Positions 2,635-36,171 of a stretch of DNA of 36,585 nt are shown here, in pieces. The position numbers and the translations under genes were made by a program. This DNA comes from Candidatus Peribacterales bacterium. GTDB taxonomy: Bacteria; Patescibacteriota; Gracilibacteria; Peribacterales; Peribacteraceae. Where the stretch lies: positions 1-36,585 of the forward strand of contig DATDWC010000016.1 in NCBI GenBank assembly GCA_035289805.1. The letters run 5' to 3'. A model generated the notes under the pieces. That model made no database searches and was not told the DNA's origin. It saw nothing but the letters and a program-made list of their open reading frames with translations. The stretch's first letter is position 1, and each line of letters opens with the position of its first letter.

Positions 2635-3894
2635 ATGTTTGCTCATATTGATGCTGACGCCTTTTTCGCTTCGGTCCTGCAGCGAAAATATCCAAGACTA
2701 AAGGGGAAAGCCCTCCTTGCTCTCGGTATGGGTGGAGGATGTGTGATTGCAGCAAGTTACGAAGCAAAAGCAAAAGGAGTGAGGACGGGCATGCGGCTCG
2801 TGGATGCAAAGAAGATTGTTCCAGAAGCCATTTTTCTCCCCGCAGACTTCCATGCGACATATGACGCTACACGCCAGCTCTTTGCTCTCTTCGAAAAGTT
2901 CTGTCCAGGAGGTGTGGAACATGCCTCTCCAGATGAAGGATATCTAGATCTAACACACACACGGAGAAGCGTAGCATTCCACACCTCTACAAACGGATGG
3001 GAATCCTTTGCTAGAGAGATCCAATCCGAATCTGACCGCTTCCTCGATCTGCCGATCTCCATCGGCATTGCTCCAACAAAAACTCTCGCCAAAATGGGGA
3101 GCAAACATCGGAAACCCAAAGGGATTTGTATTATTGAGGAAAAGGACAGAGAAGCATTCCTCGGAGAAAAAGATATCAGCTCGATTCCTGGTATCGGGTG
3201 GAAATCGACACCCAAGATGAAGAAACTCGGATTTCTCACTGCGTTCGATTTCGCACATGCCGATCCATTGATCATCGAGAAGGTTCTTGGAAAAACTGGC
3301 TTGGAGCTCCAGAGAGAAATCCGAGGCGAAGCAATCTACAAAGTCATCACGAATCCCCCACCCCCCAAATCCATCTCGCGCTGCCGGAGCTTCCGCGGGA
3401 CAAATGATAGGAATTTCCTCTATTCCCAGGTGATGACCCACCTCCAGCGCTGCTCAAGTAAACTTCGACGCCACGAACTCGAATGTGCGCGGATAGGAAT
3501 ATGGTTCCGAGGGGCGGATTACAAGAGCGGAGCATCAGCAGAGCGATCTATCGGGCGCTATGTGGCAGAAGAATCATTGCTGATGCCCTCTGTGAGGGAA
3601 ATGTTCGAGGAAGTGATTCAAACCCAAGCCCGCTTGCCCCTCGTAGCTCTGCGAAGCAGAGCGAAGTGGGGAGCCCCAACCCGCTTCACCCAAGCCGGCC
3701 TCGTGCTCTCCGATTTTCGCCCCAAAGGCTCCCGGCAGATTTCGCTTTTCGAAGAACCGGAATCCCATGAAGAAATCGCAGCACTTCAAATATCAGTTGA
3801 TTTACTGAGGAAAAAATACGGGACCGAAAGCGTAAGATTCGGTGGAAGCATTTTATTTCATGGAACGCACCCCTCCTGGGGTGCGCTTGAATAA
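2635..3894 (+). CDS. Y-family DNA polymerase (UmuC/DinB-like)
   Basis: MFAHIDADAFFASV...GGCVIAASYEAKAKGVRTGM resembles the UmuC N-terminus. The catalytic D-E pair is present in SPDEGYLDLT. It starts 34 nt downstream of lexA. Confidence 0.85.
   Translation: MFAHIDADAFFASVLQRKYPRLKGKALLALGMGGGCVIAASYEAKAKGVRTGMRLVDAKKIVPEAIFLPADFHATYDATRQLFALFEKFCPGGVEHASPDEGYLDLTHTRRSVAFHTSTNGWESFAREIQSESDRFLDLPISIGIAPTKTLAKMGSKHRKPKGICIIEEKDREAFLGEKDISSIPGIGWKSTPKMKKLGFLTAFDFAHADPLIIEKVLGKTGLELQREIRGEAIYKVITNPPPPKSISRCRSFRGTNDRNFLYSQVMTHLQRCSSKLRRHELECARIGIWFRGADYKSGASAERSIGRYVAEESLLMPSVREMFEEVIQTQARLPLVALRSRAKWGAPTRFTQAGLVLSDFRPKGSRQISLFEEPESHEEIAALQISVDLLRKKYGTESVRFGGSILFHGTHPSWGALE
3637..3671. repeat. In-frame GC-rich palindrome inside the Y-family polymerase gene
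   Basis: CCCC-TCGTA-GCTCTGC-GAA-GCAGAGC-GAAGT-GGGG. It has a 7-bp perfect core stem and 4-bp outer stem. Confidence 0.45.
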
Positions 3895-3925
3895 TTTTCC
3901 AGAGGTACGCTGTTATAATTCCCCC

Positions 3926-6175
3926 GTGTCCAAAAAACCCCACACCGAAGACCACCTCCAGGAACTCCGTACCCGCATTACGAAGGCTCCCCAGGAACCC
4001 GGTATCTACCGCTGGATCAATGCGGAGGGCGACGTTCTATATGTCGGAAAGGCAAAAAATCTGAAGAACAGGTTAAAGAGCTATGTCCAAAAAAAGCCAG
4101 ATCTTGCAATTGGTCCATGGAAGCTGGCACTGCGAGAGGCCCTAGCAGATATCGATTGGACAGTGACAGAAACAGAGCTCGAAGCACTCATTCTCGAGAC
4201 AAACCTGATCAAGGAACTAAAGCCAAAGTACAACGTCCTCATGAAGGATGATAAGAACTACGTGTATGTTCGAATTTCGATAAAGGACCCTTACCCAACA
4301 GTTTCGATCATTCGTCGCATCGAAGATGATAAAGCCAAATACTTTGGCCCCTTCCTTTCCGCTCACCACATCCATCGCACGCTCGATATGCTCCATGATG
4401 TGTATGGGTGGAGAGCATGTGATCGATCAACGGATTTATTGAATAAAGCGGAACATGCTTCGAGACGCCCCGCCGTGTCATCCCGAGTAGCTCAAGGCCA
4501 AGAGGCCGAGAGCGTATCGAGGGACGGCGGGGCTCCTCAGCATGACACTTTAAAACCTTGCCTTGATTTCCAAATCGGCAAGTGTAACGGCCTCTGTGCG
4601 GGCAAAATCACGCAAGAGGAGTATCGGCAGCGCATCGAGGCAATGATGCGATTCTTTAAAGGGGATCGAGGTGACGTGCTCCACAGGCTGAGAGAGAAAA
4701 TGCAGAAAACGGCCGAGAGGAAGCTCTTTGAGGAAGCAGCGAAACTCCGGGATACGCTGAGTTACATAGAATCATTGGAGGAGCAGCAGGTGGTTGCCGA
4801 TACCTCCGGAGCAAATACAGATTACTTTGGAGTTGCACTGCTTGCCGGTCGATCACACGTCGTGATTCTCCGTGAACGCGAAGGTAAACTCATGGGGGAA
4901 CGGAGTTACGCACTCGCAGGACATGCGGATACAGAGGGGGAAGTCCTTGGGCAGTTCATCCCCCAGTACTACATTGCAACAGAGGAAATTCCAGACACCA
5001 TCATCTGTGCCGAAGCTCCAGAAGAGCAGGAAACACTCGAACAATGGCTCAATCAAACGAGACAAACGAAGAAACGCACAACGATTCACGTGCCCGAACG
5101 CGGAAAAAAATCAAAACTCCTCACGATGGCGGAGAGGAATGCAGAGGAGAAAATCAAACAGCAACTTGCCCGGTGGGAAGCCGCAACGGAAAAAGTGGAA
5201 ACAGCCCTGGAAGAGTTACGGGATACTCTCGATCTCCCGGAGAAACCACACCGCATCGAGTGCTACGACATTTCGCACCTCGGTGGAACGGAGACTGTGG
5301 GAAGCATGGTTGTTTTTGTTGATGGCAAAGCCAAAAACAGTGACTATCGTTCATTTACTCTCCGAACGATCCATAAGGGGGAGATTGATGATTATAAGGC
5401 ACTGAAGGAAGTTCTCCGTAGACGCTTAAAATACCTCGTCGAAGATCTCCGCAAGGAAGAATCTGAGTGGAAAGAGCATGGGGTTTCGATCGGGAAGCCG
5501 TGGAAGAAAGACACGGATACTCTCAGTGCGATTATCGAGAGGCATCCCGAAAAATTCTCTACTTTAGAAAAAGAAAAGGAATATGGAGTCTTACGGAAAG
5601 AAGAAAATATTATTGGCATTCTTGAGCTCATTCACCATGGAAAAGATACTGTGGAAATGCACTCACCATGGATCGAAGAGAGTGCAGAGAGTGAGAAACT
5701 CAGTGATTTCTTCGTGCGAAAAACTCTCTCCGGCCAAAAGAAGGGGAAAATCTACATCGTGATCCCCGTAGAACACGAGGAGTATTACGCGCGCATCGGA
5801 TTCCGCTACGTGATCGATCCACCGGAACTATTGCAGAACTCACTCACGGAAGGAAAAATTCTCATGGTCTATATCGCAAAGGATCACAAAGCGGATCCCT
5901 CACTCAACGCAAAACCGGATCTCCTGGTGCTGGATGGCGGCAAAGGGCAACTCGCAGTCGGCATTGAGCTCCTCAAAAACATGAAGCTCAGGATTCCGAT
6001 CGTGAGCCTCGCAAAGCGCGAGGAGGAGGTATTTGTGCCAGGAAATCAGAATTCCATGCCATTTCCTGAGGATTCCGAAGGTCGATTTCTCCTTATGCGC
6101 CTGCGGGATGAAGCCCATCGCTTTGCAAATAGACACCGGGAAAAACGTTTGAAACATTCCCTCTACATGGAATAA
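3926..6175 (+). CDS. uvrC: Excinuclease ABC subunit C with atypical architecture
   Basis: GIY-YIG motif (GIYRWINAEGDVLYVGKAKNLKNRLKSY...ELEALILETNLIKELKPKYN). Cys-rich segment (KPCLDFQIGKCNGLCAG). UVR-like helix (LFEEAAKLRDTLSYIE). Endonuclease domain (IECYDISHLGGTETVGSMVVF...DDYKALKEV...PDLLVLDGGKGQL...LRDEAHRFAN). The ORF opens at 3842 and overlaps the polymerase gene. I prefer the in-frame GTG at 3926, which lies 6 nt after TGTTATAAT (3911-3919). The start is uncertain. Confidence 0.85.
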   Translation: MSKKPHTEDHLQELRTRITKAPQEPGIYRWINAEGDVLYVGKAKNLKNRLKSYVQKKPDLAIGPWKLALREALADIDWTVTETELEALILETNLIKELKPKYNVLMKDDKNYVYVRISIKDPYPTVSIIRRIEDDKAKYFGPFLSAHHIHRTLDMLHDVYGWRACDRSTDLLNKAEHASRRPAVSSRVAQGQEAESVSRDGGAPQHDTLKPCLDFQIGKCNGLCAGKITQEEYRQRIEAMMRFFKGDRGDVLHRLREKMQKTAERKLFEEAAKLRDTLSYIESLEEQQVVADTSGANTDYFGVALLAGRSHVVILREREGKLMGERSYALAGHADTEGEVLGQFIPQYYIATEEIPDTIICAEAPEEQETLEQWLNQTRQTKKRTTIHVPERGKKSKLLTMAERNAEEKIKQQLARWEAATEKVETALEELRDTLDLPEKPHRIECYDISHLGGTETVGSMVVFVDGKAKNSDYRSFTLRTIHKGEIDDYKALKEVLRRRLKYLVEDLRKEESEWKEHGVSIGKPWKKDTDTLSAIIERHPEKFSTLEKEKEYGVLRKEENIIGILELIHHGKDTVEMHSPWIEESAESEKLSDFFVRKTLSGQKKGKIYIVIPVEHEEYYARIGFRYVIDPPELLQNSLTEGKILMVYIAKDHKADPSLNAKPDLLVLDGGKGQLAVGIELLKNMKLRIPIVSLAKREEEVFVPGNQNSMPFPEDSEGRFLLMRLRDEAHRFANRHREKRLKHSLYME
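4467..4533. repeat. In-frame 67-nt GC-rich palindrome inside uvrC
   Basis: Perfect 10-bp termini GCCCCGCCGT/ACGGCGGGGC. Further imperfect pairing surrounds a central GGCC-AAGA-GGCC. Confidence 0.6.
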
Positions 6176-8984: not shown

Positions 8985-9199
8985 AAAAGGAATGGGGAAG
9001 GATACGAATATCCCTCCTTCGCTCCTATGGGAGCTACGGAGGGCAGACCCTTCCTCTCACACATCTTTTCCTTACTGGAGTGGATTCACACTCGAACCAC
9101 GTTTTCTTCGAGCGAGCCCTGAAGGGGCGAGTCGAGAAGCGAGACTCAAACGTAAACCCAGGAGTAAGAAGAGAGGCGGTGGAGGGAAGGAGCCATGCG

Positions 9200-9252: not shown

Positions 9253-9289
9253 CCCTTCTCCCTGTGGGAGAAGGGTTAGGGATGAGGGG
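9253..9289 (-). repeat. REP-like palindromic element, copy B
   Basis: The minus strand reads CCCCTCATCCC-TAA-CCCTTCTCCC-ACA-GGGAGAAGGG. This is a perfect 10-bp stem and shares two blocks with the element downstream of rpsO. Confidence 0.55.
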
Positions 9290-9334: not shown

Positions 9335-9372
9335 CCCCTCACCCCTGTCCCCTCTCCCCCGGGGAGAGGGGG
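9335..9372 (+). repeat. REP-like palindromic element, copy D, in inverted orientation relative to copy B
   Basis: The plus strand reads CCCCTCACCCC-TGT-CCCCTCTCCCC-C-GGGGAGAGGGG. The block order is the same as in copies A and B. Confidence 0.55.
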
Positions 9373-9395: not shown

Positions 9396-9430
9396 AAAAA
9401 CCCCTCCAACACCGTTCGGCGCTGGAGGGG
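9396..9430 (-). terminator. Rho-independent terminator of the orphan three-gene cassette
   Basis: The minus strand reads CCCCTCCA-(14 nt)-TGGAGGGG followed directly by TTTTT. It lies 26 nt after the stop of the 186-aa ORF. Confidence 0.6.
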
Positions 9431-9456
9431 TAGAGAGCTACGGTCGAAATTCAAAA

Positions 9457-13613: not shown

Positions 13614-13710
13614 TCCCCCTTCTCCCAATCTATAAAAAAGAAGAAAGATTTTCCCACACTCAACCGTATCTTCGGATAGCGTGGGAGAAGGGGGCCAGGG
13701 GGATGAGGGA
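13614..13710 (-). repeat. REP-like element, copy A (13-nt perfect inverted repeat with a 53-nt spacer), overlapping the rpsO terminator
   Basis: The minus strand reads TCCCTCATCCCC-CTGG-CCCCCTTCTCCCAC ... TGGGAGAAGGGGGA. The CCCTCATCCC and CCCTTCTCCCAC blocks are shared with copy B. Confidence 0.5.
13635..13689 (-). terminator. Candidate rpsO terminator
   Basis: On the minus strand, TTCTCCCAC pairs with GTGGGAAAA (6 bp, one mismatch, then 2 bp) around a 23-nt loop that contains a UUCG-type mini-hairpin. TCTTTCTTCTTTTTT follows. Confidence 0.45.
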
Positions 13711-14065: not shown

Positions 14066-14881
14066 TTAGCCTATTTCCACCTTCTCGACTCTCCCCATAG
14101 GGGATCTATAGAAGAGCGAGGAAACGCGCAAAAACTGATCCGGATCGCCGGTTGTGCAGAAGCGCACTCCTGATCCCCTTGTCATCACATACTCTGGATG
14201 ACGTTCCAGATACCTCTTCAGCTTCTCTGCGATGATCGAAGGAGTATGGAGCACCGTGCAGCGTCTCCCCATTTTCTTCTGGAAGAGATCATGGAGCGAT
14301 TCGTAGTGTGTGCATCCAAGGATGAGGACATCCGGGTTCTTGGATTTAATGGGGGCAAGGTATGTGCGGAGAATTTTTCGGGTCTCCGGCTTCTTGATCC
14401 ACCCCTCCTCAACGAGTGGCACAAGGAGCGGGCATGCCTCACTCACTACTCGTACATCCTTCCGGAGTGCCGTAAGCTCTTCGATGTATGTTCCAGAAGC
14501 AATGGTGCTGCGCGTTCCCACCACTCCAATACATCCACTCCTCGTTCGCTCCACAGCTTCCTCTGCAAGAGGTCGAATGACGCCGAGAATATTGAGCGTG
14601 CGACCAGTCTCCGCCCGAAGCTTGGGGAGCCATTCCTGTTGGAGAATGCGGAGGGTTCCCGCGGAGGCCGTGTTACAGGCAAGGACAATCAGCGTGCAAC
14701 CCTGATCAAAGAGGTACGAGCAGCATTCTTTCGTTGCCTCGGTAATCACTGCGCGGGAACGATTCCCATAGGGGGCCTTTGCGTTATCCCCAAGGTACGT
14801 CATGGAGAGATCGGGGAGGCGTTCGCGCACCGCTGCAAGAACATTCAGTCCGCCAACACCCGAATCGAAGATGCCGAGCAT
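14066..14881 (-). CDS. murI: Glutamate racemase
   Basis: GIFDSGVGGLNVL, LACNTASA and LGCTHYE motifs. I placed the start at ATG 14881 (MLGIFDSGVGG). The ORF opens at 15085, and that extension would overlap the divergent RSH gene. Confidence 0.85.
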   Translation of the reverse strand: MLGIFDSGVGGLNVLAAVRERLPDLSMTYLGDNAKAPYGNRSRAVITEATKECCSYLFDQGCTLIVLACNTASAGTLRILQQEWLPKLRAETGRTLNILGVIRPLAEEAVERTRSGCIGVVGTRSTIASGTYIEELTALRKDVRVVSEACPLLVPLVEEGWIKKPETRKILRTYLAPIKSKNPDVLILGCTHYESLHDLFQKKMGRRCTVLHTPSIIAEKLKRYLERHPEYVMTRGSGVRFCTTGDPDQFLRVSSLFYRSPMGRVEKVEIG

Positions 14882-14968
14882 GCCGATAAAGTCTAGCGCA
14901 CCACTCGAAAGTATGCGTCTCAATTCTTTTAAAAAGCAGCATCTCGTGTGGTACGATACGAGGTCCAT

Positions 14969-16738
14969 ATGGGGAAATTGCCTTCGCTCTTCAGTCGCAT
15001 CCAGTATCTCAGTCCGGAGGAGAGCCGGAATGTGAAGGATGCCTACATTCTCGCGCAGGAGCTCTGCGAGACTTCCCATTGTCACGCTAGGGGAGTGAAC
15101 TGCGTTGCCTATGCGGAAGAAGTAGGAGAATTACTCCTCGCTCAAAAACCAGATGCACACACTCTGATTGCTTGCTTCCTCCAATGTGCACGCGAGCCGG
15201 AGATGCTGCGGAGAGTGGAGGAGCGATTCGGACATGATATCGCAGCAACCATTGCAACACACACGATGCTCGATATTGGCCACAGTGGTTATGGTGGTCA
15301 TCCTACAGGAATGCTCCGGAGAATTGTTCTCGCACTTTCTGCAGGCAATATTCGCGTGCTCTTCATCGCCCTCCATACCCGCTTAAATACTCTGCGGCAC
15401 GCAGAACGACTTCTGCCCAAGGATCAAATAGCAACTGCACGCGAGACACTCGATATCTTCGCACCGCTCTGTGCAAGACTCGGTATCTACGCACTCAAGT
15501 ACGAGCTCGAAACACTCGCATTCCGTATCCTCTATCCCGAGGAAGCCCGCACCATGGAAGAAATGATGAAAGCAATCCGCAAGCAGTACGGACCGTTCCT
15601 TACCGAGAGTAAACGGACACTCGGGGCGCTTCTCTCGGCAGAGGGAAAACAGACCATGATCCTCACGCGCGAGAAACACTCCTATAGTATCTTCCGAAAG
15701 CTCCAGAAAAAGAGCCTCACGAGTGCTCACGATCTCCACGATCTCTTCGGCATGAGGCTCTTGGTCGAAACGGAGGAGGAGTGCTACCAGGTCCTCGGCA
15801 TCATTCATCGGATGTATCGCCCTATTTCCCACCGCCTCAAAGATTACATCGCTATGCCAAAGCCAAATGGCTACCGCTCGATTCATACGACTGTCCTTGG
15901 CTTAAGCAAAGAGAATGCTGCACTTCCCGTAGAAATCCAAATTCGAACCCACGCCATGGATGAGGAAGCGGAATTCGGTATCGCCGCGCACTGGAACTAC
16001 AAAGAGAGTGGAGGGAGGCAGCCACTCATCGGTTCTACCTGGCAAGCGCAGCTTGCCACCATGCTCCATAGCGCAGAGGGCGACGAGCAGATCGATGAAG
16101 ATATTTCCGAAGTTCTCACTGATCGCATCTTTGCGATGACCCCCAAGGGAGATGTCATCGAGCTTCCGAAAGGATCGGGTCCGCTCGATTTTGCATTCCG
16201 GGTACATACGGATGTGGGCTTACGGTACCGCTATGCCAAAGTGAATGGCACCATTGCAGCCATTGATCATCCACTGGAGAACGGAGATATGGTCCAGATC
16301 ACCATGTGGAGCGAGCCCAAACCATCACCGCAGTGGATTCAGATTGTACAGACGACGGAAGCACGTCAGAAGCTCCGAGGATTCTTGCGTCGGGATGGAG
16401 AAATACTGCAGAAAGAAGTTCTCCCACTCGTACGCGCTTCGGTCTCCAAACCGCAACGGAAAGAAAAAGTGACACCGATCGCCTCCCTTCGGCCCAAGGT
16501 TCACTTGGAATCTCAGGTACCACTCCCCTATTGCTTTGCACGTTGCTGCGAACCAGATGAGCATAGTCTCCAGCGCCCACCAATTGTGGGATACATCACG
16601 CGTAATGGTGCCGTGCGCATCCACTGGAGCGGGTGTCGCATGATCATGCATGCAAATCAGGATCGCCTGATTCGCGCTTCGTGGATCATCCCTGACGAAG
16701 TTCCTCTAAGAGCTTCTCCACTTTTTTCTGGAACTTAA
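14969..16738 (+). CDS. Long RelA/SpoT homolog (RelA-like) with a degenerate HD hydrolase domain
   Basis: Synthetase core (REKHSYSIFRKL...FGMRLLV...KDYIAMPKPNGYRSIHTTV...VEIQIRTHAMDEEAEFGIAAHWNYK). TGS domain (IFAMTPKGDVIELPKGSGPLDFAFRVHTDVG). Cys-rich domain. The HD motif position reads FLQCAREP. I placed the start at ATG 14969; the ORF opens at GTG 14948. Confidence 0.85.
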   Translation: MGKLPSLFSRIQYLSPEESRNVKDAYILAQELCETSHCHARGVNCVAYAEEVGELLLAQKPDAHTLIACFLQCAREPEMLRRVEERFGHDIAATIATHTMLDIGHSGYGGHPTGMLRRIVLALSAGNIRVLFIALHTRLNTLRHAERLLPKDQIATARETLDIFAPLCARLGIYALKYELETLAFRILYPEEARTMEEMMKAIRKQYGPFLTESKRTLGALLSAEGKQTMILTREKHSYSIFRKLQKKSLTSAHDLHDLFGMRLLVETEEECYQVLGIIHRMYRPISHRLKDYIAMPKPNGYRSIHTTVLGLSKENAALPVEIQIRTHAMDEEAEFGIAAHWNYKESGGRQPLIGSTWQAQLATMLHSAEGDEQIDEDISEVLTDRIFAMTPKGDVIELPKGSGPLDFAFRVHTDVGLRYRYAKVNGTIAAIDHPLENGDMVQITMWSEPKPSPQWIQIVQTTEARQKLRGFLRRDGEILQKEVLPLVRASVSKPQRKEKVTPIASLRPKVHLESQVPLPYCFARCCEPDEHSLQRPPIVGYITRNGAVRIHWSGCRMIMHANQDRLIRASWIIPDEVPLRASPLFSGT

Positions 16739-27531: not shown

Positions 27532-27586
27532 AACAAAGGAGATGGTAGCACACTGCCAAATATGAAAGATTCCAAGATTCCAAAAC

Positions 27587-27620
27587 CCAAGACTCCAAGA
27601 GCGACAACTTGGAGTCTTGG
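27587..27620 (-). terminator. Candidate terminator of rplJ-rplL
   Basis: A perfect 13-bp stem CCAAGACTCCAAG/CTTGGAGTCTTGG with an 8-nt loop, followed on the minus strand by GTTTTGG. Further copies of the arm lie just upstream. Confidence 0.5.
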
Positions 27621-27640
27621 TACCTTGGAGTCTTGGAGTC

Positions 27641-28042
27641 TTATTTCAGGTTTACTTTCGCCCCCACCGCCTCCAGCTTCTTCTTTGCATCTTCCGCTTC
27701 TGCTTTCGGCATTCCTTCTTTTAATACACCACCGGCATCCACCTTGGCCTTCGCTTCGCCAAGACCAAGACCCGTGATCTCGCGGACAACCTTAATGACC
27801 TGGATCTTCTGTGCGCCTGCATCGGCAAGCTCCAAATCATAGGAAGTCTTCTCCTCTGCAGGAGCGGCGGCCGCACCTCCACCTCCTCCGGCAACAGCAA
27901 TTGCTGCGGGAGCAGCGGAGATACCGTAGACCTCCTCCATGTATTTAACGACGTTATTGAGGGAGACGACGTTCAGTTTTTCGAGTGCGTCGATCACCTT
28001 CTTCTCATCAGCGGAGAGTGAAATGGTTGCAGAATCTGCCAT
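27641..28042 (-). CDS. rplL: 50S ribosomal protein L7/L12
   Basis: Ala/Gly hinge followed by KIQVIKVVREITGLGLGEAKAKVD...KEGMPKAEAEDAKKKLEAVGAKV. Confidence 0.92.
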   Translation of the reverse strand: MADSATISLSADEKKVIDALEKLNVVSLNNVVKYMEEVYGISAAPAAIAVAGGGGGAAAAPAEEKTSYDLELADAGAQKIQVIKVVREITGLGLGEAKAKVDAGGVLKEGMPKAEAEDAKKKLEAVGAKVNLK

Positions 28043-31147: not shown

Positions 31148-33421
31148 ATGAGTGATCTCATTTTCGATGGCCTGAATGCGGAGCAGAAGAGAGCTGTCGA
31201 AACAGTGGATGGTCCTGTGTTGATTCTCGCCGGAGCAGGATCGGGGAAAACTCGTGCGCTCACTCACCGCATTGCGTACTTGATCGAACGGGGTGTGGAG
31301 CCTTGGCAGATTCTCGCAGTCACATTTACGAACAAAGCAGCAAACGAAATGAAGAATCGCATTACGAACCTGCTCAAACTTTCGGATCCAAACCAAAAGC
31401 AGCTACCGGTGATGGGTACGTTCCACTCTGTCTGCGTCCGCATTCTTAGACGCGATATCGAACACATCGGGAGGAACAGGGACTTCGTAATCTACGATAA
31501 GGATGATCAGGAGAGGTTGATGAAGGAAGTTCTCCGGGAGATGAATATTGATGTAAAGGAACTCAAACCCCGTACTGCACTCGCACACATCGGACGCTTT
31601 AAAAATGAGGCTTTGAGTGCTGAGGAAGTATCAGCACAAGCAACCACAGATTGGATGGGGCGTGTGGTGAAGATCTATAACCGCTACCAGGCACTCCTCA
31701 GGCAGCATAATGCGCTCGATTTTGATGATCTGATTCTGGAATCTGTTCGCCTCTTCCGCGAAGTACCTGCTGTTTTGGAGCGTTACCAGAACACCTGGCG
31801 CTATTTGAATGTGGATGAATACCAGGATACAAATCACGCGCAGTACCTTTTGATCTCGCTCCTTGCAGAGAAGCATCGCAACCTCTGTGTGATTGGCGAT
31901 CCGGATCAATCGATCTACGCATTTCGCGGTGCGGATATCCGGAATATCCTGGAGTTCCAGCGCGAATACAAACAGGCAGCATCCATCAAGCTGGAGCGGA
32001 ACTACAGGAGCACGCAGCAGATCCTGGATGCGGCAGATTGCATCATCGCAAAGAACCCCGGTCGCCCGCAGAAGAAAATGTGGACCGAACGAGTCGATGG
32101 CGAAAAGATCATCGTGCAGGAAACAGGGGACGAAAAAGCGGAAGCACGCGAGGCTGTGCAGAGCGTAATGGATAGGATGGCGCACGGCATTCGTCTGAAT
32201 GAGCAGGTGGTGCTATACCGCACGAATGCGCAATCGCGTCTGTTTGAAGAAGCTTGCATGAAAGCGAGTGTCCCCTACCGGATTCTCGGCGGTGTGAAGT
32301 TCTACGCCCGCGCCGAAGTGAAGGATATCGTGGCCTACCTCCATGCGATCCATAACCCTCAAGATGCCTTGGCACTCCTCAGGATTATCAATGTGCCAAG
32401 TCGCAAGATTGGAGAGACAACGATCGCGAAGATTCAAGCATGGTGTTCTGCAGAGCAGATCGATCTCTGGACCGCACTCACACAGATCGATGGTATGCAG
32501 GAAATTCCCGAGCCAACCCGTAACCGCATAGCAGAGTTCGTGGCACTCATTCGAAAATTCCGTGATAAGCGTTCACACATGCATGTCGGCGAGCTTACGA
32601 AGGAGCTCCTCGAAGAAATCAAAATGGAAGCATGGGTGAAGGATGATACAACCGAGGGCGAAAGCCGCTGGCAAAATATCGGTGAGCTCCTCACGGTGAT
32701 GCAGAAGTACCAGGGGCTTACGCCCGAGGAATCGTTCGTGAGTTTCCTGGAGGAAGTTGCCTTGGTTTCGGAAGTGGATAAGTTGGATACCATGCAGAGC
32801 GAGGCTCTGACCCTCATGACTCTCCACCTCTGTAAAGGACTCGAGTTTAAACACGTCATCATCGCAGGGTGCGAGGAAGGAATCTTCCCCCACTCGAATG
32901 CCCTCTTCGATACAGAACAACTCGAGGAGGAGCGCCGCCTCATGTACGTCGGGATGACCCGTGCGAAAGATATCCTCTGCTTACTCTTCGCTCGCAGCCG
33001 CAGCTTGTGGGGTTCGGTGCAGGCAAACGATATGAGCCGGTTCCTGGATGATCTACCGCCGGAGCTCGTGGAGCGGAAGAGTGATGATGTGATGAGTGGA
33101 GTTCTTTGGAAGTTCTCTTCAAGCGAGCCCCGCATCGGAGCGCGGAGCGCGACTGGTGCGGGGCGAGTCGAGAAGCGTTCAAAACTTCAACCGTATCGCC
33201 AGCACGCCGATCTCTCGATCGAGTTCAACCAGGATGCACTCTCGCGGGATGATATGAACCAGGATATCGGCAATGATCTTGCCGAGGGCTCCCGCATCCG
33301 CCATCCCGTCTTTGGTGAGGGTACCGTAACCTCTAAGCGGGGAGATATCGTGGATGTACAGTTTGATTCGGGAGAGAAGAAGAGATTTGCCTTAAGCATT
33401 GCGCCGCTGGAAGTGATGTGA
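31148..33421 (+). CDS. pcrA: ATP-dependent DNA helicase PcrA/UvrD
   Basis: SF1 motifs: GAGSGKTR, TFTNKAANEM, VDEYQDTN, YRST, VLYRTNAQSR, LMTLHLCKGLEF, YVGMTRAK. C-terminal Tudor-like HPVFGEGTV. Confidence 0.9.
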   Translation: MSDLIFDGLNAEQKRAVETVDGPVLILAGAGSGKTRALTHRIAYLIERGVEPWQILAVTFTNKAANEMKNRITNLLKLSDPNQKQLPVMGTFHSVCVRILRRDIEHIGRNRDFVIYDKDDQERLMKEVLREMNIDVKELKPRTALAHIGRFKNEALSAEEVSAQATTDWMGRVVKIYNRYQALLRQHNALDFDDLILESVRLFREVPAVLERYQNTWRYLNVDEYQDTNHAQYLLISLLAEKHRNLCVIGDPDQSIYAFRGADIRNILEFQREYKQAASIKLERNYRSTQQILDAADCIIAKNPGRPQKKMWTERVDGEKIIVQETGDEKAEAREAVQSVMDRMAHGIRLNEQVVLYRTNAQSRLFEEACMKASVPYRILGGVKFYARAEVKDIVAYLHAIHNPQDALALLRIINVPSRKIGETTIAKIQAWCSAEQIDLWTALTQIDGMQEIPEPTRNRIAEFVALIRKFRDKRSHMHVGELTKELLEEIKMEAWVKDDTTEGESRWQNIGELLTVMQKYQGLTPEESFVSFLEEVALVSEVDKLDTMQSEALTLMTLHLCKGLEFKHVIIAGCEEGIFPHSNALFDTEQLEEERRLMYVGMTRAKDILCLLFARSRSLWGSVQANDMSRFLDDLPPELVERKSDDVMSGVLWKFSSSEPRIGARSATGAGRVEKRSKLQPYRQHADLSIEFNQDALSRDDMNQDIGNDLAEGSRIRHPVFGEGTVTSKRGDIVDVQFDSGEKKRFALSIAPLEVM
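33127..33164. repeat. In-frame 38-nt GC-rich palindrome inside pcrA/uvrD
   Basis: Termini GCCCCGCA/TGCGGGGC (8 bp) with an inner GCGC-GGA-GCGC. Confidence 0.5.
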
Positions 33422-35349: not shown

Positions 35350-36171
35350 ATGAGCGATATTGCAGCGTTTCTCCGGAAGAAAGGCCTCCGCCTCAATACC
35401 GATCTCGGCCAGCACTTTCTGCAGGACGAAGGCGTGCTGCGCGCGATTGTTGAAGCAGCGAAGATTGATCCCAGTGATCACATCGTGGAAATCGGCGCAG
35501 GAGTCGGCGTGCTCACCAAGGAACTCACAGGAAGAGCAAAACAGGTGACTGCCGTCGAACTCGACCGGCGGCTGATCGATCTCTTAAAGGAGTACACGGG
35601 AAATCCGCCGAATCTTACGATCGTGGAAGGAAATGCTCTGCAAGTTTCGTTTCCCGAATCTCCCTACAAGATCGTCGCGAATATTCCCTACCACATCACC
35701 TCACCGCTCCTGCGCCATGCATTTCTCCCCGCCCGATCCGAACGATCGGATCGTTCGGGCGGGGAATCTCAGATGCAGCCGAAATCGATGACATTACTCA
35801 TTCAGAGAGAAGTTGCAGAAAAGATCTGTGATCAAAAAGATCATGGCCTCCTCACCATTCTCGTCTCCCTCTTCGGCACTCCAAGAGTAGTCCGCATCGT
35901 TCATCCGGGCGCTTTCATCCCCCCGCCCAAAGTGGATTCCGCCGTGCTCCACATTGATTGCTTCCCCAAACCCAAGGCGGATCCAAAGACGATTGATGAG
36001 CTTTTCGTACTCACGAAGGCGGCATTCAGCCAAAAGCGCAAAATGCTCAGGAATACGATCGGGGAGATGGAGAATGGCATGGATCGTCTGAAGAAAGCAG
36101 ACATTGATGCCATGCGGCGGCCGCAGACCTTGAGTATTGAGGAGTGGATCAAATTGGCACAAATCGCCTAA
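35350..36171 (+). CDS. rsmA: 16S rRNA (adenine1518/1519-N6)-dimethyltransferase
   Basis: LGQHFL, the SAM motif VEIGAGVGVLT, and NIPYHITSPL. It carries an extra segment of about 13 aa after the NIPY helix. Confidence 0.9.
   Translation: MSDIAAFLRKKGLRLNTDLGQHFLQDEGVLRAIVEAAKIDPSDHIVEIGAGVGVLTKELTGRAKQVTAVELDRRLIDLLKEYTGNPPNLTIVEGNALQVSFPESPYKIVANIPYHITSPLLRHAFLPARSERSDRSGGESQMQPKSMTLLIQREVAEKICDQKDHGLLTILVSLFGTPRVVRIVHPGAFIPPPKVDSAVLHIDCFPKPKADPKTIDELFVLTKAAFSQKRKMLRNTIGEMENGMDRLKKADIDAMRRPQTLSIEEWIKLAQIA
35727..35764. repeat. In-frame 38-nt GC-rich palindrome inside rsmA
   Basis: CCCCGCCC-GATCC-GAACGAT-CGG-ATCGTTC-GGGCGGGG. It has an 8-bp and a 7-bp stem. Confidence 0.6.

Follow-up and report, generated by a model that had tools for sequence, protein, structure and literature searches.

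The stretch of 36,585 nucleotides analysed here (the window; contig DATDWC010000016.1 of assembly GCA_035289805.1) comes from a Candidatus Peribacterales bacterium whose genome was detected in groundwater and soil metagenomes. Its gene order lexA-dinB-uvrC-...-pnp is syntenic with other Peribacteria contigs. Within uvrC, between Cys193 and the KPCLDFQIGKC motif, lies a DNA hairpin in an open frame, which a preliminary description made from the letters alone had correctly placed between the conserved Cys and the KPC motif and had delimited as a 67-nt palindrome at 4467-4533. The palindrome is real, but its extent was underestimated: the true element covers 95 nt (4454-4548) and is not a simple palindrome but a nested pair of units resembling repetitive extragenic palindromic (REP) sequences. 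Probably, it is one copy of a multicopy family of non-coding repeats that occupies a permissive linker of UvrC.

The closest relatives of this UvrC are found in Candidatus Peribacteria/Peregrinibacteria of the Candidate Phyla Radiation (CPR) and likewise contain a GNAT-like insertion. This GNAT-acetyltransferase-like domain lies within the UvrC RNase H endonuclease domain (5400-5900, residues about 535-685), is common to most Peregrinibacteria homologs and is represented in relatives by Pfam PF00583, PF13508 and PF13673.

The termini of the palindrome as first delimited, GCCCCGCCGT (4467-4476) and ACGGCGGGGC (4524-4533), are perfect 10-bp inverted repeats with a spacing of 47 nt, and the interior pairs around GGCC-AAGA-GGCC, both in agreement with the preliminary description. 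Perfect 10-bp inverted repeats gave 29 hits at ~12 loci of the window, compared with 4.1 ± 2.3 pairs in dinucleotide shuffles. A single repeat of this kind is not significant, whereas the whole uvrC hairpin is: the RNA minimum free energy of 4455-4555 amounts to -53.4 kcal/mol against -31.6 ± 3.3 kcal/mol for shuffled sequences (z = -6.6, 0/200), and the DNA fold of the same segment to -28.3 kcal/mol (z = -5.5). The hairpin ranks second among the 90-nt folds of the window and first among those inside genes, with a local GC content of 0.64 vs 0.51 for the window. Searches with the Rfam 15 covariance models gave no gathering-threshold match in the window or in 18 of the loci described below (designated L with a number), and none at E <= 10 for 4380-4620.

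The palindrome first reported is bordered by two conserved outer boxes that pair with each other, ATGCTTCGAG (from 4455) on its left and CTCAGCATGAC (4536-4546) on its right. The uvrC gene of locus L002, whose protein is 55-56% identical, has at the corresponding codon a hairpin with exactly these outer sequences (AACATGCTTCGAGAC ... TCCTCAGCATGACA) around a different GC stem and interior, while the uvrC gene of L003 has the outer sequences only (MHASSAAQHD). Because both share these outer sequences, the element must exceed the coordinates reported earlier, and the 10-bp repeat is its middle stem. In the uvrC copy, the outer unit ATGCTTCGAG ... CTCAGCATGAC encloses a copy-specific GC stem, which in turn encloses an inverted unit, TGTC-ATCCCGAG ... 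TCGAGGGAC, with its own small hairpin. The pairs thereby formed are A/B', S/S' and B/A' (Table 1); B and B' are also mutually complementary (82% over 17 nt), which creates an interleaved alternative pairing.

The limits of the element are marked independently by metagenomic data. In metagenome runs containing the window, coverage of 4451-4558 exceeds that of the flanks by a factor of up to about 6, which indicates multiple copies in the source metagenomes. The arms 4457-4491 and 4505-4548 recur in other metagenome contigs, which part from the window at about 4457 and 4548, a pattern of shared arms and subsequent divergence that points to element ends at these positions and to a variable core.

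Table 1. The uvrC element, its parts and related hairpins in the window
Feature	Position	Strand	Description
Host gene uvrC	3842..6175	+	777 aa; GIY-YIG, UVR and UvrC RNase H (two RNase H-like) domains, with the GNAT-like insertion typical of Peregrinibacteria UvrC
Complete palindromic element, nested dimer of two REP-like units	4454..4548	+	Encodes UvrC residues 205-236 (EHASRRPAVSSRVAQGQEAESVSRDGGAPQHDT); delimited by fold, box architecture of 30+ other copies and metagenome divergence points
A box, 5' arm of outer unit	4454..4466	+	C-ATGCT-TC-GAG-AC; ATGCT pairs with AGCAT 4539-4543 and GAG with CTC 4536-4538; covariation
Stem S, 5' arm	4467..4476	+	GCCCCGCCGT; copy-specific; left terminus in the preliminary description
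B box, head of inner inverted unit	4476..4487	+	TGTC tag + ATCCC + GAG; shared boxes, covariation
Variable inner hairpin	4488..4516	+	TAGCTCAAGGCC-AAGA-GGCCGAGAGCGTA; most divergent part among copies
A' box, tail of inner unit	4517..4525	+	TCGAGGGAC, partner of B box; covariation
Stem S', 3' arm	4524..4533	+	ACGGCGGGGC; right terminus in the preliminary description
B' box, 3' arm of outer unit	4534..4548	+	TC-CTC-AGCAT-GAC-AC; also complementary to B box region 4475-4491
Related mini-hairpin in frame in dinB	3637..3671	+	CCCCTCGTAGCTCTGC-GAA-GCAGAGCGAAGTGGGG; window-specific insertion where L003 dinB has a full element
Related hairpin in frame in uvrD (31148-33421)	33114..33177	+	TCTCTTCAAGCGAG-CCCCGCA ... 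TGCGGGG-CGAGTCGAGAAGCG; site where L070 uvrD has a canonical unit
Intergenic degenerate relic of similar style	9105..9145	+	TCTTCGAGCGAGCC-CTGAA-GGGGCGAGTCGAGAAGCGAGAC

Alignment with 25 UvrC relatives, in which the spacer was measured from LN[KRH] to [LI]KPC(LD), bears out the proposal that the segment is an insertion. The spacer comprises 6-8 residues in many relatives, including proteins that are 65-73% identical and lack the segment. In others, 20-90 unrelated residues separate the two motifs. In the DNA of the empty-site orthologs L055 and L056, LN(R/H) is followed by six codons and KPC, compared with 35 codons in the window. Presence among UvrC orthologs is patchy, and other lineages hold different palindromic inserts or subtypes at the same codon position; altogether, uvrC copies were found at seven loci with at least four subtypes at this one position. 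Two of the six frames of the element are open, and uvrC reads the single open sense frame. In an AlphaFold2 model of UvrC (mean predicted local distance difference test score, pLDDT, of 79), residues 210-235 form a coil with pLDDT < 50 between confidently modelled flanks, namely the helix 194-208 and the Cys motif. The extra residues are therefore predicted to be disordered. The solved UvrC structures in the PDB cover the GIY-YIG and C-terminal domains only, and the linker lies outside their coverage.

A family of nested hairpins and its in-frame copies

GTDB species genomes were searched with a pattern of three conserved boxes, and metagenomes with a narrower pattern describing the subfamily of the window. 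The former yielded 45 loci and the latter 28, with the same box architecture and many of them in frame in other genes, which establishes the family of related palindromes that had been anticipated. The hosts of the 45 loci include Peribacteria/Peregrinibacteria metagenome-assembled genomes (MAGs; a single genome gave up to 4 hits), Ignavibacteriales, Bacteroidota (Dyadobacter, Hymenobacter), Alphaproteobacteria (Methyloligella, which has several copies), Verrucomicrobiota, Acidobacteria and Chloroflexi. A single unit forms a bulged hairpin composed of a (C/T)GTC tag, a 5-bp stem opening with AT (ATSCY/RGSAT), GAG...(TC)GA and a variable, copy-specific upper hairpin. Units occur as singletons (B-hairpin-A'), as adjacent, tail-to-tail inverted dimers (B-hairpin-A'...A-hairpin-B', 85-170 nt), and in nested form, either as dimers or with three levels. 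Nested dimers are represented by the window and 20 or more other copies, and adjacent inverted dimers by Methyloligella, L005 and L053. L009 and L041, two loci of one Peribacteria genome with different flanks, carry nested dimers that share their S and are about 95% identical, which shows that the composite elements move or duplicate as units. No target-site duplication was seen in 32 copies, and only two matches fell on viral contigs, with no sign of phage carriage.

All three stem levels covary between copies, and the structure is what is conserved. The stem S varies in nearly every copy yet pairs with its own S': over 21 copies, the mean duplex energy was -18.3 kcal/mol for self pairs vs -10.6 kcal/mol for cross pairs, and the own S' ranked first as partner in most copies. 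The box-anchored 5-bp stems, counted in 32 copies, show frequent compensatory changes and few mismatches. The outer stem occurs as ATGCT/AGCAT, ATGCC/GGCAT, ACCCT/AGGGT and ATCCC/GGGAT, and in the inner stem, position 3 is CG, GC or AT, while position 5 is divided 16:16 between TA and CG. RNAalifold on a MAFFT alignment of the copies recovered only the B/B' pairing since the variable stems were out of register, and the box-anchored counts were used in its place.

Genic hosts in CPR contigs were verified by Pfam. Besides uvrC, they are dinB (L003, L005), uvrD (L070), an HhH-GPD glycosylase gene (L038), a PD-(D/E)XK nuclease gene (L062/L063), carA, in an interdomain linker (L074), a Cu P-type ATPase gene (L079), a 5-formyltetrahydrofolate (5-FTHF) cyclo-ligase gene (MTHFS, L073) and a gene for a LamG-domain protein (L071). 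The CPR genic copies are in frame and stop-free in the frame of the host, although most frames of the elements hold stops. They use both orientations and several reading frames, and the same loop is often occupied in different lineages. Copies outside CPR are mostly intergenic. Repair or nuclease genes account for four of the eight verified hosts that came from two unbiased scans, a small sample in which the bias towards repair genes is suggestive.

In L003 (1067-2215), gene callers fragment dinB around the element at 1347-1440, and palindromic inserts of this kind appear to degrade gene calling in CPR MAGs. For annotation this means that copies inflate and diversify linkers, seed spurious open reading frames (ORFs; ...LSMT, ...AQHD, VIPS...) and split gene calls, as for this dinB gene. 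At L028 (2745-2848) and L016 (5801-5900), the ATG of the terminal box (AGCATGAC or GGGATGAC) is the likely start codon of a downstream membrane-protein ORF.

Relationship to known palindromic repeats

REP sequences have been assigned to GTAG- and CGTC-tagged superfamilies (Di Nocera, De Gregorio & Rocco 2013, BMC Genomics 14:522, PMC3733652). Members of the CGTC superfamily carry the tag CGTC, with the variants TGTC and CCTC, have stems that open with AT, frequently form inverted dimers and lack an associated transposase; among them are the Rickettsia palindromic elements (RPEs) RPE-4 and RPE-6 as well as Neisseria dRS3 (PMC3733652). Copies that lie in frame inside genes cluster in those for replication and repair, among them uvrA/B/C (uvrC in the case of R. 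conorii and X. autotrophicus), uvrD, polA and dnaE2 (PMC3733652). The element in uvrC and its relatives show the same traits. The inner unit bears TGTC-ATCCCGAG (4476-4487), the outer end ...AGCAT-GACA reads TGTC on the opposite strand, and other copies have CGTC or TGTC. At the start of the outer stem, position 1 is AT in 20/32 and position 2 TA in 27/32 copies; in the inner stem, position 2 is TA in 30/32 copies, while the A at position 1 is paired in only 12/32. Inverted dimers are present as well. Both groups thus consist of short GC-rich stem-loops that end on one side in an unpaired (C/T)GTC tag, pair in inverted orientation into larger hairpins, occur in many phyla and have in-frame copies in repair genes.

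In contrast to the CGTC-tagged REPs described, the units found here measure about 47-70 nt, their dimers are nested and not only adjacent, and the CPR host and its insertion sites lie outside the published survey. The four described families (CGTC-1 to -4) combine a simple stem of 8-9 bp with a loop of 4-5 nt and a CCA tail in units of about 30 nt (PMC3733652), whereas the present units consist of a 5-bp stem, a 2-nt bulge, a 3-4-bp stem (GAG/CTC) and a long variable hairpin with no CCA tail. Therefore, the uvrC element falls outside these four families and represents at most a new family of the superfamily. By tag and architecture, it is best classed as a palindromic repeat of the RPE or REP type, probably selfish, with the CGTC/TGTC-tagged REP superfamily as its nearest relative, and is arguably a new family.

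RPEs are palindromic repeats of a bacterium with a small genome. They interrupt conserved genes without shifting the frame, are translated as an extra, fold-compatible surface segment and have coding as well as non-coding copies (Ogata et al. 2000; summarised in PMC10969869 and PMC3733652). The repeats described here resemble them in their in-frame insertion into conserved genes, their absence from orthologs, their coding and non-coding copies and a position that is fold-compatible according to the structural model. The comparison with RPEs made in the preliminary description hence holds as a mode of action; its statement that the uvrC element is much shorter does not, considering the length of 95 nt and relatives of up to about 170 nt. 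RPE-1 is 100-150 bp long, AT-rich and encodes a conserved peptide. Measured against that description, the uvrC element differs by being GC-rich and having other boxes, by conservation of the DNA pairing instead of the peptide, and by the occurrence of its relatives in several frames, both orientations and many phyla. The element is not close to RPE-1, and its tie to RPE-4 and RPE-6 runs only through the CGTC tag reported for them (PMC3733652).

REP doublets forming hairpins (REPINs), mobilised by REP-associated tyrosine transposases (RAYTs), likewise consist of hairpin units in inverted doublets, cause no target-site duplication and conserve structure partly over sequence. However, their tag is GTAG and not (C/T)GTC, and REPs are by definition mostly extragenic. 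At L054 (15338-16155), a gene for a RAYT-like Y1 transposase (NF047646, 62 bits, cutoff 80) has inverted repeats of 32-43 nt with the sequence CGTAGAGACGCCC on both sides; the locus is a GTAG-type REPtron in a Peribacteria genome, and the CGTAGAGACGCCC motif is also present in L052 and L053. A RAYT was considered as the mobilising enzyme of the uvrC family and rejected, since this sole RAYT-like gene is flanked by GTAG-type repeats that do not belong to the family and none lies in the window.

[quoted passage not shown] They differ from the present elements, which show no target-site duplication in 32 copies and consist of modular covarying hairpins instead of a decayed transposon. No related autonomous insertion sequence turned up, although no genome-wide search for a cognate one was made. 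A hammerhead-like reading of the CUGANGA motif present in some copies was discarded, as the window copy lacks this motif and Rfam gave no match. Literature searches brought up no account of elements of this kind in CPR or Peribacteria; a search by box sequence gave primers only.

Origin and persistence of the uvrC element

Combined, these observations favor the interpretation, to which we assign a probability of roughly 0.78, that the uvrC palindrome is one copy of a multicopy, REP/RPE-like family of non-coding repeats, and that this copy landed in a permissive UvrC linker, or has been there for a long time, and ribosomes read across it. Such elements would spread as selfish DNA, probably as a single-stranded hairpin handled in trans by a structure-specific enzyme, for which a Y1/HUH-type enzyme such as RAYT serves as a model; this proposal builds on the analogy with REP/RAYT, and the missing target-site duplication is consistent with it. 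New units may enter the loops of existing hairpins preferentially, and this would give rise to the nests as well as to S stems that differ from copy to copy. Survival would be limited to in-frame, stop-free insertions in tolerant loops, which would explain the loop or linker positions, why the same sites are occupied repeatedly and why the peptide is both translated and unstructured. The same-site recurrence could arise from a small number of permissive sites, from replacement of resident copies, or both. The effect of the element on UvrC is probably neutral to mildly modulatory.

Several points weigh against this interpretation. Neither contig-level comparison nor a strain-level protein cluster revealed an empty-site allele or a presence-absence polymorphism between strains, so that these data give no sign of recent mobility at uvrC. 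No mobilising enzyme was identified, and BLAST and motif searches found no second full copy with canonical boxes in the window, only chance 8-16-nt matches. Translation through the hairpin is suggested only by its open frame, and peptides such as VAQGQEAESVSR or DGGAPQHDTLKPCLDFQIGK would be the mark of read-through. In addition, the outer boxes of the window and L002 are 100% identical despite the low identity of the two UvrC proteins and the diverged flanking coding DNA. To explain this identity, resident copies must be under constraint, undergo gene conversion or have homed independently to the same codon, and pure neutral selfish DNA is insufficient to account for it.

A more far-reaching reading, which we regard as tentative and rather doubtful, is that of self-nesting, or 'Russian-doll', hairpins: a conserved bulged-stem module, found in seven or more phyla and not known to have a transposase, would home to hairpin loops, its own included, and, in CPR, persist preferentially in frame in SOS/repair genes (uvrC, dinB, uvrD, glycosylase, nuclease) at recurrent 'landing-pad' loops. 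If this is true, it would imply structure-specific single-strand insertion tied to damage-induced transcription or repair, and a co-option of the elements to modulate repair proteins would be possible.

Alternatively, the hairpin could be a host-selected cis-regulatory structure of mRNA or DNA (it might pause or block translation, serve as an RNase target or form a cruciform) that adjusts the expression of SOS/repair genes such as lexA-dinB-uvrC and uvrD, and the repeat family would be kept for this role. The boxes and their pairing are indeed kept in resident copies across UvrC proteins that are only 55-56% identical, the hairpin is very stable (-53 kcal/mol) for a structure inside an ORF, and the over-representation of repair and nuclease hosts (4/8 verified) echoes the earlier survey (PMC3733652). 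However, many close orthologs are without the insert, the copies lie in both orientations relative to the host gene and also occupy unrelated hosts (carA, ATPase, MTHFS), those outside CPR are mostly intergenic, and no Rfam family matches, which makes a regulatory origin unlikely. Still less probable is an old, lineage-specific UvrC linker whose palindromy arose locally, through template switching or quasi-palindrome correction, and is neither mobile nor repeated. Palindromes can grow through fold-back synthesis, and the linker length is hypervariable among the relatives of this UvrC. In contrast, a local origin leaves unexplained why the same boxes and the same nesting recur at dozens of unrelated loci and in several phyla, why near-identical copies lie at separate loci of one genome, and why other contigs of the same metagenomes share the arms.

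A strongly structured insert in a conserved gene also brings to mind an intron-like or intein-like segment that is removed after transcription or translation and is absent from mature UvrC. We consider this very improbable, as every verified genic copy keeps the frame and is stop-free, as expected for a translated segment, no group I/II intron or ribozyme model matches, intein motifs are missing and the segment spans 32 codons only. Finally, although palindromes can mislead assemblers and a contig of one run (X4) has a 4477->4524 joint, an assembly artefact such as a fold-back chimera can practically be dismissed, because the sequence of the element is identical in contigs of at least four runs and in independent NCBI, ENA, JGI and Logan assemblies, with the frame kept.

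Interpreted as a resident copy of a repeat family, the uvrC element extends the colonisation of genes by in-frame palindromes, best known from Rickettsia, to CPR bacteria, whose genomes are also small and gene-dense. The phenomenon itself is already known; what deserves attention is the CPR setting, the nesting (not described in PMC3733652), the boxes shared across phyla and the renewed bias towards repair genes. This bias was seen earlier for unrelated REP families in other phyla, and it gains credibility and testability from the present hosts. The nesting and the same-site recurrence furthermore bear on how tag-bearing REPs spread without a transposase.

Other palindromes in the window

The preliminary description had counted three more in-frame palindromes of similar style, and further ones do exist in the window. 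Two palindromes, in dinB and uvrD (Table 1), are related to the uvrC element, and the one in dinB is the sole other window-specific insertion with palindromic DNA that emerged from the comparison with syntenic orthologs. The relation of another palindrome is unclear: in the gene for an rRNA adenine dimethylase (RsmA/KsgA), an in-frame, near-perfect 40-nt palindrome, TCCCCGCCCGATCCGAACGATCGGATCGTTCGGGCGGGGA, lies at 35726-35765 and adds no net length compared with the Pfam profile (258 residues vs 257 profile positions). In dinB, long-range inverted repeats with arms of 11 and 16 nt were also observed at 2909-2987 and 3226-3325, respectively; they lie in conserved parts and correspond to no insertion relative to orthologs.

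The strongest hairpin of the window (27561-27650, -50 kcal/mol, 43% GC) is intergenic and located downstream of a minus-strand gene of the Trp/Tyr-tRNA synthetase family. It is composed of CCAAGACTCCAAG and two copies of the complement CTTGGAGTCTTGG, has no relation to the uvrC family and resembles either a terminator acting in both directions or a repeat of its own. Intergenic palindromes in a second style, built on CCCTTCTCCC/GGGAGAAGGG and CCCCTCTCCCC/GGGGAGAGGGG, occur at 9253-9275, 9349-9371, 9400-9431 and 13615-13694, clustered in the spacer downstream of pnp and also upstream of murI, and may constitute another repeat family. The murI-like racemase ORF (14066-15085) contains a pair of 21-nt inverted repeats (14646-14769) and encodes 339 aa, about 60 more than its orthologs of 272-279 aa; this extra length may reflect the choice of the start codon.

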